The notes under the pieces are model-generated. The model was not told the DNA's origin and made no database searches. It saw only the letters and a program-made list of their open reading frames with translations. Of a DNA stretch of 37,167 bases, positions 21,749 to 28,520 are shown one piece after another. The stretch is from Draconibacterium orientale (lineage in GTDB: Bacteria > Bacteroidota > Bacteroidia > Bacteroidales > JAADGE01): the NCBI GenBank assembly GCA_020718265.1, contig DYSM01000001.1, positions 1-37,167 on the forward strand, read 5' to 3'. Made by a program: the position numbers and the translations under genes. Every line of letters starts with the position of its first letter. Within the stretch, counting starts at the first letter, position 1.

Positions 21749-21899
21749 GCACGGGAACAGCTGCGAAATTTGCGGCGAAAAAGGCTTTTGGTCAGCCTTA
21801 TTACAAAAGCTATTGTGCGACAAGCATCGTGCTAAGTTAATTTTTGCTTTGCTGTTTGGCGGAGGCGGTATTGCACTATTTTTTATATATGTATTATGA
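21735..21899 (+). CDS. unlisted 54-aa protein with a C-terminal TM helix
   Basis: Hand translation gives MSKSKHGNSCEICGEKGFWSALLQKLLCDKHRAKLIFALLFGGGGIALFFIYVL*. It overlaps the preceding stop, and its own stop overlaps the next ATG (ATGA at 21896). Confidence 0.35.
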   Translation: MSKSKHGNSCEICGEKGFWSALLQKLLCDKHRAKLIFALLFGGGGIALFFIYVL

Positions 21900-22072
21900 G
21901 CATCAAGGAACTTATCAATCAGATTATCAGTGAAATTCCAATTTATAGGTACCTGGAAACATCCTATGAGTTAGCTCGCATTGAGTTGCAGGCTGACTTG
22001 AAAAAGTGGGAGATTACCTATAATCTATACCTTGAAAAACAAGGTATTAATCCAAAAGAATATGAAGAATAA
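21896..22072 (+). CDS. unlisted 58-aa hypothetical protein
   Basis: Hand translation gives MSIKELINQIISEIPIYRYLETSYELARIELQADLKKWEITYNLYLEKQGINPKEYEE*. It fills an otherwise unassigned gap and overlaps the next ATG (22062). Confidence 0.35.
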   Translation: MSIKELINQIISEIPIYRYLETSYELARIELQADLKKWEITYNLYLEKQGINPKEYEE

Positions 22073-22860: not shown

Positions 22861-25800
22861 TACAGGTATCCACCATAAACCACTTGAAATCAATCGTCAA
22901 GATTGAAGATGTCGTCGGCGATTTCATTAATTTGCGGCGAAAAGGCACAGCACATCTCGGACTTTGTCCGTTTCACAACGAAAAAACCCCGTCATTCTCG
23001 GTATCTCCGGCAAAAGGCATCTACAAATGTTTCAGTTGCGGCGAAAGCGGCAATGCGTTCAGTTTCGTAATGAAACACGAAGCAATGAATTATCCGGAAG
23101 CAGTGAAATGGATTGCGAAAAAATATAACGTTCCCGTTGCAGAATCAGAATCCTCCGACGATGCCGCTCGCCGAACGCACAAGGAAAGCCTTGCAATTGT
23201 TACTGAATTTGCACAGAAAGTCTTTCTACATTCGTTCGATAAATCCGCAGCACACCAATATATGAGCATTGAGCGCGGTTTCAATGCTGAAATTTTGCGC
23301 GATTTCAATATCGGCTATGCGAAAGATGATTGGCAATTCCTGAGCGTTGCCGCACTTAAACGCGCATACAAAGCTGAATTATTGACGGAAAGCGGACTTT
23401 CCGGAACCAAGAAAACAGACGGCTCACTATATGACCGTTTCCGAAATCGCGTTATGTTTCCGTATTTCGATTTATCCGGAAAAGTTATCGGTTTTACAAG
23501 CCGTATTCTTACCGCCGACAAAAGCGAAGCGAAATACATAAACAGCTCAAATACAGAGCTTTTCGACAAAAGCAAAATACTTTTCGGCTTATTTCAGGCA
23601 AAAAAAGCGATTGTTGCCTACGATGAGTGCTTCTTAGTTGAAGGCAATACCGACGTGATGCGTTTCCATCAGCTCGGCATTGCGAACACCGTTGCCACAT
23701 CCGGAACCGCTCTGAGCACTATGCAAGTGAAACTGATTCAACGCTTCACATACCACGTGATTCTGCTGTTCGATGCCGATAATGCCGGCAAAAATGCGGC
23801 AATGAAAAGCATTGACAAGTTTCTTTCCGAAGATTTCGTGGTTAATGTTTGCATCCTGCCCGAAGGCGAAGACCCGGACAGCTTCGGTAAGTCGCGCACA
23901 AAGGATGAAGTGTTGAATTATATTCTTGAAAACAAAGTTGATTTCTTTGAATTTCAGGCGAAAACGCTGTTGAACGGCAGCGTTTCCGCAAAAGATATTG
24001 TGAAAGTTGCCGAAACCATTGCAACCTCAATTTCATTCATTGACAATGAAGCCGAACGTATTATTTTGAGAAAAAAACTTTCTCAAAAATTCGGCATCGA
24101 AGAAAAGCTCCTTGACAAAAAAACTGCAAAACTTTCCGAAGAAAAAGAATGCGTTATAGGCTTTTTTGCCTGGGAAGAAGCGAAGGAAGCTATCAAGGAA
24201 AAGAATGTTGCAAATCTGGTTTTTTCTAATGATTTCGTTATTGAAAAGCATTTCAATAACGAACTTAACACTGTCGGATTCACAGAAAATACAGCTTATT
24301 CATATTTCAATGAGCTGCATAAGCTTACGAAAAATATTAGCGTTTCAGAATCGCTTGGGCAATTTGATTTGATTGATACAAACGGAGAAACGAAGCTTTT
24401 GAAACTTTTCAAGCAACTTATTTCAGTTGGGTTTAACCTTGAGATTACATATTTCAATGAGATCGACGATAAAGAAGATACTACTTCATTCATTGACTTC
24501 TATTTTGAACTGCAAATAGGTTCAATCAAAGGTAGTAATGATAAGTCTAAGAAATCAGCAATTGAGAAATCCGCAGAAATAATATCATTCTTATCTGAGA
24601 CTGAGCGGATGTTAAAAATTAATCATGTTGTTTCAAGATTCAAAAGTAATGGATATGTCATCAATCAAGGCGATTTCAAAAAGATCGTTTCAGATTATCT
24701 CAAAGAGAACCAACGTTCCGATAATAAGGAAGTTACCATATATGCGAATAATCCGCACGGATTGACGAAAGAACAGCTCGAATCGCTTGACAAATACGGC
24801 TTGTTTGAGAAAGATAATCAGTTGTTTTTCGAGGAAAAAAGCGGCGGTTCTGTTCCTTATTCTAACTATATTATTCGCCCGCTCTTCCATATAGAAAGCA
24901 TCAACGAAACGCGCAAACTATTTGAAATCATAAATTTCAAGAACGAAAAACAGATTATCGAAGTTGATATTGAAAGCATGGTCAAGATTGACAAATGGCA
25001 AATATTCTGCGAAAGTAAAGGCAATTTCCTTTTTTGGGGAGACAAAACGAAATTCACTCGATTGAAACAACGCCTGTATGCCGATACGAAATTTTGCAAG
25101 AATATCGAAAACTTAGGCTGGCAAAAGCAAGGTTTTTGGGCATGGGCGAACGGAATTGTGTATGAACGTCAGTTTGTGCCTGTGGACAGTTACGGAACTG
25201 TAACCGTCCTAAATACGAATTATTACATCCCTGCATTTTCGGAGTTGTACAAACATGATAGAACAGTATTCAAGGCTGAGCGCAAATTCGTTCGCAAACC
25301 GCAAGACATTTCGTTTTTTCAATGGTCTGAAAAGTTCATTTCTGTCTATGGTGAAAATAGCAAACTATCTACCTGCGCACTGCTTACGTCTGTGTTTTCG
25401 GATTATATTTTTTCGATTACTGGGAACTTGCCTTTGGTAAATTTTTTCGGTGTGAAAGGCACCGGAAAAACAGAACATGCCAAGAGTCTGCTTAACTTTT
25501 TCGGAGATGAGCAGAACCTGCTCAACATTCACAAAGGCACGGAATATGCCGCCGCAGTGCACATGGAGAATTTCAAAAACGCATTTGCATTGATTGACGA
25601 GTATAAGAATTCGTTAGACATCAATAAGTTGGAATATCTGAAATCTATCTATAACCGCGACGGACGTGTGCGCGGTTCAATCAAGGCAGGAATTAAGACC
25701 GAAACGACACAAGTTAATTCCATGGCATTACTGTGCGGTCAGGAAATGCCGACGGCGGATGTCGCCTTGTTTTCGCGTCTTGTTTTCCTCCCTTACTATA

Positions 25801-26594
25801 ATCCGGAATATTCGCAAACGCAAAAAAACAAGTTCAATGAACTGAAAGCGATTGAGAAAAAAGGATTAACACACTTAGTTGAAGAGCTGCTCGGATTCCG
25901 TTCGCTTATTGAAAAAGAATACGAACAAACGTTCTACGATGTTGAGAAGGATTTGTCGGAGCAAGTATCTTCGTCGGTGGACGGGCGATTGATTAAGAAT
26001 TATGCGATTCTTATAGCGACATTCAAGATATTGGAATCGCGCGTGAGTGTCGCGTTCAAATACGAAGATGTGTTTCAACTCTCACTGAATCGCATTCGTG
26101 AGCAATATACGATTATGAACAGCTCCAACGAAGTCAGTGCATTCTGGGAAAGCCTTGTATCTCTTGCCGAACGCGGCATAATTCGACACGGCGATAATTA
26201 CCGAATCATTGACGAAATCTTCATCACCTTGCTTGTGAAGAATGGTGCATCAACGGAAGAAAAGAGATTTGATTTCTCAGGCTACAAAAACGGAAGTAAG
26301 CAAATATTGTATCTGAAAATGAGCACAATCTATAATTATTATGCCGAACTGTGCGCAAAAACGCGACAAGAAATTATGCCGAAACGCTCGCTTGAATATT
26401 ACATCGAACACAGCAAGACCTTCTTAGGTCGCTCGAAAAGCACACGCTTCGACAACGTAACCACAGGTTGGGCATTTGACTACGATATGCTCGGCATTGA
26501 CCTCAGCAGCCGTAACGATACACTGCAACCATATCACGAAACTCCGCAACCACTTCCTAACTATGAACCAAAAGATGATAATTCACCATTCTGA
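22857..26594 (+). CDS. DNA primase / P-loop helicase fusion protein (DnaG-type zinc finger + TOPRIM + C-terminal NTPase)
   Basis: CHC2 zinc finger '[30 protein letters not shown]'. TOPRIM 'LVEGNTDVM...TSGTALS...[13 protein letters not shown]'. Walker A '[12 protein letters not shown]' and Walker B 'FALIDEY' lie in the C-terminal half. 1245 aa. Confidence 0.9.
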   Translation: [1245 protein letters not shown]

Positions 26595-26741
26595 TATTGA
26601 ACAAATTACACACGGAAGCCTGTTCAGCGGCATCGGAGGCTTTGAACTTGCCGCAGAGCAGCACTCGGGAACGTCATAGTTCCAGAAGTAGCAGATAGAA
26701 TTTTTCAATCAATTATTTTCAAACAATACATTTTTCAATCA
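26563..26741 (+). pseudogene. C5-cytosine DNA methyltransferase remnant (motif I fused out of frame to motif X, core deleted)
   Basis: One frame gives MNQKMIIHHSDIEQITHGSLFSGIGGFELAAEQHSGTS*, carrying motif I FxGxGG. The frame starting at 26667 gives GNVIVPEVADRIFQSII..., the C-terminal GN(A/S)V.P.VA motif X. Nothing between them encodes the PC catalytic motif IV or the target-recognition domain. Confidence 0.65.
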
Positions 26742-27547
26742 TGCAAAAATCAAAAATCCAATGGACAGATTACACGTGGAATCCCGTGTGGGGTTGCTTG
26801 GGCGGATGCAACTACTGCTATGCACGCGGCATAGCGAAGCGATTTGCGAAACCTATTGCAGAGCGTGAGGCTACGCTTAACAAAAGAAAAAACATATTTG
26901 AAGATGTAGCGAGATTTACACCTACAATGTTAGACCATAGACTGTTTGCGGAATTTCCGAAAAAACCTTCGCGTGTGTTTGTTAATTCAATGTCTGACCC
27001 GGCATTTTGGAACAGAACTATACGCCGAGCAGTTCTTGACCGCATTCATTTCAATGAGTCTCATTCTTTTCAGATGCTTACGAAATTCCCGCAAATATTA
27101 GAGTTTGATTATTACCCGCCTAATTTATGTTTTGGCACCTCGTGCGAGAATCAGGAATCGGCAGATATGCGCATTCCGGCATTATTGGAACGTCCGGCGG
27201 CTTTGCATTTCGTTTCTTTCGAGCCGCTTACGGGGCATGTGAATCTGAAAACTGAATGGACAGAAAAAATTAAATGGGTAATCATCGGCGGCATGTCAGG
27301 CACGAAAGCCACACCGATGCGCATGGAGTGGGCTGAATCACTAATAGAAGAGTGCGAGATGTTCAATATACAGGTATTCTTCAAGAGTTGGGGCAAGTAT
27401 GTTCCGATAGAGAATCTGACTGTAAAAGAGCGCAATGCAATTATGTTGAAACCGCCAAAAATAACCGGCGAATATTGTTACAATGCCTCTGAACAAGTCA
27501 GCTATGAGCACGTGAGAGGGTTTGAGTATCGTAATTTCCCAAAATAA
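26741..27547 (+). CDS. DUF5131 / phage Gp37-Gp68 family protein (three-Cys motif, here CxxxCxxC)
   Basis: The N-terminus 'IQWTDYTWNPVWGCLGGCNYCYARG' matches the family signature (IEWTD.TWNP..GC....GC..CYA). 268 aa. Confidence 0.8.
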   Translation: MQKSKIQWTDYTWNPVWGCLGGCNYCYARGIAKRFAKPIAEREATLNKRKNIFEDVARFTPTMLDHRLFAEFPKKPSRVFVNSMSDPAFWNRTIRRAVLDRIHFNESHSFQMLTKFPQILEFDYYPPNLCFGTSCENQESADMRIPALLERPAALHFVSFEPLTGHVNLKTEWTEKIKWVIIGGMSGTKATPMRMEWAESLIEECEMFNIQVFFKSWGKYVPIENLTVKERNAIMLKPPKITGEYCYNASEQVSYEHVRGFEYRNFPK

Positions 27548-27560
27548 TATATCTGAAATC

Positions 27561-27821
27561 ATGGAAAAAAAAAAAATGAGAAACGTTGTGATTATTCCCG
27601 AAGAAAAAATCGATCATCCACAGCATTACGGCGGTGCTGATAATGTGTATGAAGCAATCAATGTTATTGAAGCTTGGCAATTGAGCTTTTGCCTCGGCAA
27701 TGTGCTGAAATACATTTCGCGTGCCGGAAAGAAGGGTCCCACTCTTGTAGACCTCCGAAAAGCGCAATGGTATTTGGTGCGGGAAATCAGACGCATAGAA
27801 AAGGATTCAATTAGCGCCTAA
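27561..27821 (+). CDS. DUF3310-family phage protein
   Basis: 'HYGGADNVYEAINVIEAWQLSFCLGNVLKYISRAGKKG...DLRKAQWYL' matches the DUF3310 pattern (HY.....e.i.vie......gn.iKYi.Rag.K....dl.KA..Yl). ATG 27561 is followed by an A12 run, so ATG 27577 is an alternative start. Confidence 0.7.
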   Translation: MEKKKMRNVVIIPEEKIDHPQHYGGADNVYEAINVIEAWQLSFCLGNVLKYISRAGKKGPTLVDLRKAQWYLVREIRRIEKDSISA

Positions 27822-27832
27822 CGCAAAATAAT

Positions 27833-27864
27833 AGCTTACGTGCCGAAATATCCGCACGTAAGCT
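27833..27864. terminator. perfect 11-bp stem hairpin at the end of the early operon
   Basis: agcttacgtgc - 10-nt loop - gcacgtaagct, 12 nt after the stop at 27821. There is no clean T tract on the + strand, so its terminator function is uncertain. Confidence 0.4.
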
Positions 27865-27921
27865 AAGAAAAAGTTAAAAAGTTTAATAACGGATAAAAGT
27901 ATCTAAATAGCACAAAAGCAA

Positions 27922-27951
27922 GGCATTAACGGCTATTATATGTTATCGGTA
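27922..27951. repeat. left arm of the imperfect inverted repeat bracketing ORF 27976..28461
   Basis: ggcattaacggctattatatgttatcggta. The reverse complement of the right arm is ggcattacggctattatttgccgttatcggta. Shared blocks are ggcatta, cggctattat and ttatcggta. Confidence 0.65.
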
Positions 27952-27975
27952 TTTTTATCATAATATCAATCTTTT

Positions 27976-28461
27976 ATGAAAATTAATATAGAAAATCAAA
28001 CAGTTTTGCAAGCAAATATATTAGTAGATGCAATCGAAAATTTTTTTTTAAAAAAATCGGCAGAGTTTGAAAAACTAACTTATTATTCTTCTTCTTATGA
28101 AATATCAAAAAGAACATTTAACGAATACAATTTAGATGAAATGATAAGGAACTCCGATATATTCGCTTTTTCTGCAATGTTAATCAAAGATTTAGTTGAA
28201 CTAACAATTTATAAAAAATTATACAAACTTAATTTAGAAATAACGAAAGAATATCATAATAAAATCGGGGCATTACAACATAGAGAATGTCATTCTGAAA
28301 TAGAATTTGTTGAAAAAGTTTATAAATTCATTAAACCAATAATTGCTAAAAAATTAGAACTATATTTAATCAAATATAATTTCGTAGAAAAATGTGTTTG
28401 GATTGATGAATTTAAAAGTGATTTTTCAAGTTTAATAAAATTATTTGATAATCCTATTTGA
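27976..28461 (+). CDS. hypothetical protein, very AT-rich moron-like gene
   Basis: 161-aa ORF, K/I/N/E/L/Y-rich and predicted helical. It has its own upstream spacer and a strong terminator downstream, and is flanked by inverted repeats. No motif was recognised. Confidence 0.55.
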   Translation: MKINIENQTVLQANILVDAIENFFLKKSAEFEKLTYYSSSYEISKRTFNEYNLDEMIRNSDIFAFSAMLIKDLVELTIYKKLYKLNLEITKEYHNKIGALQHRECHSEIEFVEKVYKFIKPIIAKKLELYLIKYNFVEKCVWIDEFKSDFSSLIKLFDNPI

Positions 28462-28462
28462 T

Positions 28463-28494
28463 TACCGATAACGGCAAATAATAGCCGTAATGCC
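28463..28494. repeat. right arm of the inverted repeat bracketing ORF 27976..28461
   Basis: taccgataacggcaaataatagccgtaatgcc begins 2 nt after the stop codon. Confidence 0.65.
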
Positions 28495-28520
28495 CATACT
28501 AAGCTCACTCCACTATCTTC

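Follow-up and report, generated by a model that had tools for sequence, protein, structure and literature searches.

A decayed orphan phage C5-cytosine methyltransferase gene next to an intact, probably unrelated DUF5131 gene

The stretch of DNA analysed here (the window) comprises 37,167 nt of the Draconibacterium orientale assembly GCA_020718265.1 (contig DYSM01000001.1, positions 1-37,167, forward strand). It resembles a tailed-phage genome, apparently of a Bacteroidota-type siphovirus, with nearly all genes on the + strand; its products include a tape-measure protein, an amidase and a prohead protease of the S49 type, and it carries a replication module that includes a DnaA_C/HTH protein and a DnaG-primase/helicase-like fusion. 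At the end of the primase gene, the stop codon of which sits within the first of them, there are two short pieces that resemble the ends of a C5-cytosine DNA methyltransferase, followed by a gene for a DUF5131 protein. An initial annotation of this locus had described both fragments, two copies of a 12-mer and three cysteines in the DUF5131 protein (C19, C23 and C26), all of which were found again at the positions given, and had read them as the wreck of a two-gene module made up of a methyltransferase and an Fe-S enzyme. From the evidence below, we consider it highly probable that the pieces are a dead orphan phage C5-methyltransferase gene lying beside an unrelated, intact DUF5131 gene, resulting from ordinary gene decay rather than from the breakdown of a two-gene system.

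Motif I of C5-cytosine methyltransferases, F-x-G-x-G-G, is involved in binding S-adenosylmethionine (SAM). It is present in the N-terminal piece as LFSGIGGFELAAE at 26620-26658, and the frame of this piece continues past 26658 to a stop codon at 26677-26679, the whole of 26563-26679 being translated as MNQKMIIHHSDIEQITHGSLFSGIGGFELAAEQHSGTS. The last recognisable codon in this frame is GAG (E, 26656-26658), and the first one in the +2 frame is GCA (A of A-L-G-N, 26661-26663). Motif X, G-N-(A/S/V)-(V/I)-x-P, is present in this second frame, as GNVIVPEVADRIFQSII... from 26667, and no single open reading frame (ORF) covers both pieces. A reading with a -1 frameshift at the junction can be discarded, as no correctly phased slippery heptamer is present there.

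When aligned with the 258-aa intact methyltransferase of MT836332, the N piece fell on residues 2-22 (18/21 identical) and the C piece on residues 234-249, while in gp43 of Bacteroides phage BS-TP4 (XPO95461.1, 440 aa) the two pieces corresponded to residues 5-24 and 419-434, with 10/16 residues identical at the C-end. Alignment to full-length phage methyltransferases, as suggested in the initial annotation, placed both ends but not the exact breakpoint, the junction being located only to about 26659-26660. With the joined pieces as a tblastn query, 274 records were matched among the GenBank phages, and in the best 30 of these every record annotated under the match was annotated as a DNA methyltransferase. 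The joined remnant also matched phrog_363, DNA methyltransferase, in PHROGs (E 7.2e-6).

A codon-degenerate search for HGSLFSGIGGFELAA in IMG/VR gave 26 loci. In 23 of them the gene is complete, at 242-404 aa, and the termini M-x-HGSLFSGIGGFELAAEWMGW... and ...KAYGNAIVPQVAYQIFKAI... recur among these genes. A subfamily hidden Markov model (HMM) of 298 positions, made from 19 non-identical intact phage members, was searched against all 1645 stop-to-stop pieces from the six frames of the window. The pieces that ranked first and second were the adjacent, collinear ones described above, the N piece at HMM positions 1-19 (E 1.2e-7) and the C piece at positions 271-290 (E 0.006), and the next best piece in the window had an E value of 2.1. 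No counterpart of the methyltransferase core (HMM positions ~20-270) was detected anywhere in the six frames of the window, and motif IV with the catalytic PCQ, motif VI with ENV, motif VIII and the target-recognition domain are absent with it. Approximately 84% of the gene, roughly 0.6-1 kb, is missing, and about 30 N-terminal and about 20 C-terminal codons are retained in different frames. The pieces are the two ends of a C5-methyltransferase with a deleted core and an out-of-frame junction, as had been proposed. The positions of these and the neighbouring features are given in Table 1.

Table 1. Features at the methyltransferase remnant and the adjoining genes, with the evidence for each
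Feature	Position in window	Strand	Evidence
DnaG-type primase fused to helicase-like C-terminal domain, 1245 aa	22857..26594	+	Pfam Zn_ribbon_DnaG, DNAG_N, Toprim
N-terminal remnant of C5-cytosine DNA methyltransferase (start region + motif I, LFSGIGGFELAAE)	26563..26658	+	Translation, likeness to MT836332, subfamily profile
Deletion junction (approximate)	26659..26660		Profile alignments of both pieces; frame offset +2
C-terminal remnant of the same methyltransferase, motif X + tail (ALGNVIVPEVADRIFQSII), +2 frame	26661..26717	+	Translation, likeness to BS-TP4 gp43, subfamily profile
A/T-rich tandem array, 14-15 nt period, 2.8 copies	26700..26741	+	Tandem Repeats Finder, exact-match search, L001 alignment
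Intact DUF5131 (PF07505) gene, 268 aa, radical-SAM-like	26741..27547	+	Pfam, PHROGs, subfamily alignment, AlphaFold2
Codons for C19-L-G-G-C23-N-Y-C26, CX3CX2C motif	26795..26818	+	Translation

In the collections searched, a single close relative of the window was found, IMGVR_UViG_3300000236_000003 (loci L001, L004, L014 and L015; L001 hereafter), with proteins that are 96-97% identical. This contig was assembled independently, differs by ~3% and has the same methyltransferase junction, indicating that the deletion was inherited and is not an assembly artefact. The remnant is more damaged in L001, where GIGG of motif I has become GIGD and a 1-bp indel abolishes the remnant's own start, the N piece then being read as a 29-aa tail of the primase. 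Nucleotide identity between the window and L001 was 97.8% for the primase, 97.4% for DUF5131 and 92.1% for the remnant (87.8% for the C piece alone), and the divergence of the remnant was matched by 0/118 primase windows of equal size. As the remnant is both more divergent and further damaged in L001, it is drifting and is not a conserved small protein, the outcome that the initial annotation had named as contrary to its reading.

The boundary between the remnant and the DUF5131 gene consists of a tandem array. Its 12-mer, ATTTTTCAATCA, occurs exactly twice, at 26700-26711, where it encodes R-I-F-Q-S-I of the methyltransferase tail, and at 26730-26741, where its final A is the A of the DUF5131 ATG at 26741. 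The last repeat copy is the edge of a 227-bp indel relative to L001 (window 26728-26743; L001 5763-6003). In L001, 13-nt direct repeats, TTTTTCAATCATG, flank 227 bp that are absent from the window, which has one copy; they are located before a 69-aa ORF carried by the extra sequence (L001 5774-5983) and again before DUF5131, the ATG of which is at L001 6001. The 227-bp difference is the signature of a deletion between direct repeats, the alternative being that a small gene was gained where the two share a gene-start motif. By an exact-match search, the repeat motif is not a general gene-start signal in the window, and a scan of 26300-27700 for sigma-70 promoters and terminators gave only background levels.

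Other differences between the two contigs were also observed. The window contains 119 bp (21915-22033) that are not in L001, where the 58-aa ORF found at ~21898-22072 of the window is cut to ~11 codons, and it seems that the two have repeatedly diverged through short internal deletions. The DUF3310 gene downstream of DUF5131 (27561-27821 onward) opens with an A12 run (~27566-27577) and, at 88.8% identity, is far less similar to its L001 counterpart than are the genes on either side. Similarity to L001 ends at 27815, which suggests a mosaic boundary at this position.

Beyond the sister contig, megablast of 25500-28500 against GenBank phages returned no match, and a degenerate DNA pattern for GSLFSGIGGFELAAEQ had 0 matches in IMG/VR. 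Close relatives of the primase were limited to the sister contig in IMG/VR, with none in the JGI metagenomes and one irrelevant short match in the GTDB genomes. Primase relatives, annotated as DNA primase, were present in Bacteroidota metagenome-assembled genomes and in Porphyromonas, Flavobacterium and Cellulophaga phages at 26-61% identity. Among the closest primase relatives in the protein database, P0001 (61% identical) lacks DUF5131 and is followed, 3.8 kb downstream, by a methyltransferase from another lineage, and no methyltransferase follows the primase of P0002 (69%) or P0004 (42%).

For the gene downstream of the remnant, the ORF is intact in both the window and L001. Its Pfam match to DUF5131 (E 9.4e-51, 173.1 bits against a cut-off of 28.9) covers profile positions 1-230 of 243, confirming the initial annotation of an intact DUF5131 gene with a CxxxCxxC motif, and it was also assigned to phrog_2045 (E 1e-61). 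The family motif GC-x(n)-C-x2-C-Y-A is present as GC19LGGC23NYC26YA, and all 27 columns that are invariant in a 21-member alignment of CX3CX2C proteins are kept, including C19, C23, C26, Y27, A28, SMSD and S-x-EP. An exhaustive HMMER search of 1.84 billion representatives identified 26,802 DUF5131 relatives at E ≤0.001. The best 150 representatives (P0127-P0276) comprised 99 with GC-x6-C-x2-C and ~48 with GC-x3-C-x2-C, in agreement with the statement in the initial annotation that the first spacer is more often longer. The CX3CX2C spacing is therefore that of a common DUF5131 subfamily, and the family divides cleanly into two large subfamilies by cysteine spacing, GC-x3-C-x2-CYA and GC-x6-C-x2-CYA. 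Many of the x3 members have an extra Cys in a preceding I-x-W-C-D motif. In the metagenome that contains L001, another contig (IMGVR_UViG_3300000236_000002) also encodes a DUF5131 protein, 38% identical, and ~230 bp upstream of it there is a 100-aa ORF (L016 3476-3775) with a faint IscB-like match in the HNH region (E 4e-7).

The CxxxCxxC motif in this family is not a new observation, since DUF5131 is already listed as a radical-SAM subgroup by RadicalSAM.org/SFLD, as Megacluster-5-2, next to spore photoproduct lyase in Megacluster-5-3 (PMC9477430). In the AlphaFold2 model (pLDDT 91.8), the Cys loop lies between strand 16-18 and helix 27-44, and the CX3CX2C motif follows the first core β strand, as it does in the radical SAM superfamily. 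The top matches to solved folds were spore photoproduct lyases, 4fhf and 4rh0 (probability 0.98 and 0.96), with QueE, TigE, a nitrogenase FeMo-co biosynthesis protein (7bi7) and viperin lower in the list. NCBIfam TIGR04471, radical SAM mobile pair protein A, was matched over residues 13-216 (E 1.4e-21, 77 bits), below its equivalog cut-off of 355, and other radical-SAM families gave faint N-terminal NCBIfam matches; the neighbouring ORFs scanned contained no radical SAM pair protein B. A sequence-profile search of the PDB returned no solved DUF5131 structure, and a literature search (PF07505, Gp37Gp68) returned no functional study of the family. The gene most likely encodes a radical-SAM-type enzyme, in which C19, C23 and C26 would, by inference, hold a [4Fe-4S] cluster that cleaves SAM.

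Several results weigh against this interpretation of the two genes. On the remnant, Pfam PF00145 stayed below its cut-off even when the pieces were artificially joined (14.5 bits against 22, E 0.024-0.12), which is expected because the remnant has only ~40 residues, and NCBIfam dcm was not significant on the remnant alone. The deletion is deduced from the remnant and not from a before-and-after pair, since no close relative with an intact methyltransferase at the same position, which the initial annotation had proposed to look for, was found in the collections searched. The downstream DUF3310 region is also divergent from L001 (88.8%), so local divergence alone is no proof of neutrality. The codon differences from L001 were 12 nonsynonymous and 7 synonymous in DUF5131, compared with 28 and 45 in the primase; these small counts suggest that DUF5131 is under weaker constraint than the primase. 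Finally, the model resembles spore photoproduct lyase only weakly (TM 0.38, E 1.3e-3), which leaves the partial TIM-barrel fold of solved radical-SAM enzymes a tentative assignment, and of the two profile checks that had been proposed, the one with PF07505 was positive and the one with Pfam Radical_SAM, PF04055, gave no match, only PF07505 being reported at E ≤1. The basis for membership of the radical SAM superfamily is instead the SFLD/RadicalSAM.org listing.

The initial annotation had suggested that the locus may once have been a two-gene DNA-modification module of methyltransferase and DUF5131, and that DUF5131 may now work with a host methyltransferase. This could be supported by the direct adjacency of the remnant and DUF5131 in the window, by DNA methyltransferases being the most frequent identifiable nearest neighbours of phage DUF5131 genes (10/151), and by one locus (L051) in which a Dcm-like ORF ends ~120 bp upstream of DUF5131. 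These counts come from 79 further IMG/VR DUF5131 loci in which genes were called crudely as the longest ORFs, making the figures rough; the nearest ORFs of ≥80 aa on the same strand were taken as neighbours and the third ORF away on each side as the control, and both were assigned by Pfam. Regular expressions for Dcm motifs proved too coarse for finding such neighbours, and phmmer and Pfam scans took their place. The upstream neighbours (n=74) included four N6_N4_Mtase, two D12 and one PF00145, the downstream neighbours (n=77) three PF00145, and the control ORFs (n=135) three N6_N4, one PF00145 and one Dam. However, the frequency of DNA methyltransferases of any class next to DUF5131 did not differ from that three genes away (5/135, Fisher p = 0.30), and neither did that of C5 methyltransferases alone (4/151 against 1/135, p = 0.37). 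The methyltransferases found as neighbours are of three classes that differ in chemistry (N6/N4, D12/Dam and C5), more than 90% of the DUF5131 loci have no methyltransferase neighbour, and a Dcm-like ORF was located within ~4 kb of DUF5131 in only 3/81 loci by phmmer with three Dcm queries. From the other side, 30 loci with an intact methyltransferase of, or near, the remnant's type (the 26 loci that bear the subfamily signature, of which 3 are truncated at a contig end, and 4 related loci) included none with DUF5131, or with a primase of the window's type, in the stretch fetched. The counts give no support for a functional methyltransferase-DUF5131 pair and the module is improbable; the adjacency is best read as that of two accessory genes which share an early module but are independent of each other. 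The methyltransferase-like partner that the initial annotation had named for DUF5131 proteins, TcmP, was not found either: an NCBIfam scan of 11 window ORFs, the downstream neighbours among them, gave no match to TIGR04474, and TcmP was missing from the 25 most frequent neighbour families in each list for the 79 phage loci, in which no recurring NCBIfam family besides DNA methyltransferases was present. A role of DUF5131 that is independent of the methyltransferase, the other option raised initially, fits the evidence, and adjacency to a methyltransferase gives no basis for inferring what DUF5131 does.

Another explanation is that the remnant is functional, either as a small protein (the 38-aa product or a frameshifted fusion of the N and C pieces) or as a C-terminal extension of the primase. 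An unrelated contig does have an in-frame 53-aa mini-ORF from motif I to motif X (P0121, in L012), and in L001 the N piece forms a 29-aa extension of the primase. However, the three arrangements differ from each other (separate ORF, primase fusion and in-frame fusion), the start codon is lost and a motif I glycine mutated in L001, and no other stretch of the region is as divergent as the remnant. Methyltransferase chemistry is impossible without motifs IV-VIII, and a functional remnant is, in our view, very improbable. Even less credible is that the likeness to methyltransferases arose by chance or that the junction is an assembly chimera. Each piece is short and the Pfam E values are poor, but the two pieces are independent, adjacent and collinear and were the top two profile matches in the window, and the PHROGs match and the annotated records among the best 30 of 274 all point to a methyltransferase. 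A chimera is effectively refuted by the same junction in the independently assembled L001.

The gene decay that we favour most likely took place as follows. Positions 26563-26720 are a dead gene that once encoded a phage orphan methyltransferase (C5-cytosine, M-x-HGSLFSGIGGFELAAEW...KAYGNAIVPQVAYQIFKAI subfamily), and a single internal deletion removed ~84% of it (profile positions ~20-270 of 298). This deletion is older than the split between the window phage and its one known close relative, and the remnant has been in neutral drift since that split. DUF5131 is an unrelated intact gene of the same replication/DNA-metabolism module, independent of the lost methyltransferase. The 12-bp repeat belongs to the short array at the gene boundary, the last copy of which is the junction of a second, repeat-flanked indel of 227 bp.

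The mini-ORF of the unrelated contig mentioned above was found by a protein search with the joined pieces, a query that is itself an N+C fusion and biased the search to that architecture. It is located at L012 662-823 (ENA ERZ23499175 scaffold_64671, a 1231-bp contig) and has the sequence MTHGSLFSGIGGFELAAAIVPQVAYRIFESIQDHE... (MTHGSLFSGIGGFELAAAIVPQVAYRIFESIQ...), in which motif I is fused in frame to the motif X tail by joining profile positions 1-18 to 275-296. As its breakpoints differ from those of the window, as do its neighbours, it is very probably an independent core deletion in the same methyltransferase subfamily. A weaker variant of the speculative reading of DUF5131 given below is that such recurrent core deletions (in the window and L001, and independently in L012) could be under selection. 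Methyl-dependent host restriction could be the driver, and the gene ends could be retained for the stop and start signals of the neighbouring genes. Apart from L012, pattern scans gave no sign that motif I-to-motif X scars are frequent, as the scar pattern (motif I, a gap of ≤30 nt, motif X) was found only in the sister contig in IMG/VR and not in the JGI metagenomes. A C5-methyltransferase gene truncated in a different manner was observed in MT839835.1 (L005 2218-2475), which stops after motif IV (85 aa) and is followed by two genes for tyrosine recombinases, both encoded on the other strand, as if an integrase-bearing element had broken into the methyltransferase gene.

Elsewhere in the window, a Pfam scan of the 30 larger ORFs revealed no second DNA methyltransferase. 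Pentapeptide-repeat proteins can mimic DNA. One of 276 aa is encoded in this phage genome at 503-1333 (Pfam E 6.5e-39), and a role as an anti-defence or anti-gyrase factor is conceivable.

Phages commonly carry methyltransferase genes in a state of decay. As it stands, the locus matters little, combining common gene decay with an already catalogued radical-SAM subgroup. The DUF5131 family has tens of thousands of members and no characterised representative, and spore photoproduct lyase as the nearest solved fold leads to a first concrete hypothesis, by analogy, that the substrate may be nucleic acid. Extending this, DUF5131 proteins might be phage radical-SAM enzymes akin to spore photoproduct lyase that act on DNA, repairing or editing bases during replication, an idea that we regard as speculative and rather unlikely. 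If it were true, the presence of DUF5131 in the same early module as several classes of methyltransferases would reflect a shared substrate, replicating phage DNA, and not a shared pathway.

Compared with the orphan phage methyltransferases of phrog_363/PF00145 (the HGSLFSGIGGFELAA...GNAIVPQVAYQIFKAI subfamily, including BS-TP4 gp43 and the MT836332 ORF), the remnant has the same termini in the right order. Unlike them, it lacks motifs IV, VI and VIII and the target-recognition domain, and its ends are in different frames; it is a pseudogene and not a member enzyme, and is of the Dcm type and not TcmP. The neighbouring protein agrees with DUF5131/PF07505 (formerly phage Gp37/Gp68) in the full-length match, the three-Cys motif followed by YA, SMSD and S-x-EP, but differs from the usual members in having CX3CX2C instead of the commoner CX6CX2C and a C-terminal extension of ~45 residues that only some relatives share. 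With radical SAM mobile pair protein A (TIGR04471) it is homologous over residues 13-216, although its score is far under the equivalog cut-off. With spore photoproduct lyase (4fhf, 4rh0), a radical-SAM enzyme of DNA repair, it shares the CX3CX2C motif after the first core strand and a place in Megacluster-5; however, the two are only 12-13% identical (TM 0.38) and the DUF5131 protein is ~70 residues shorter.

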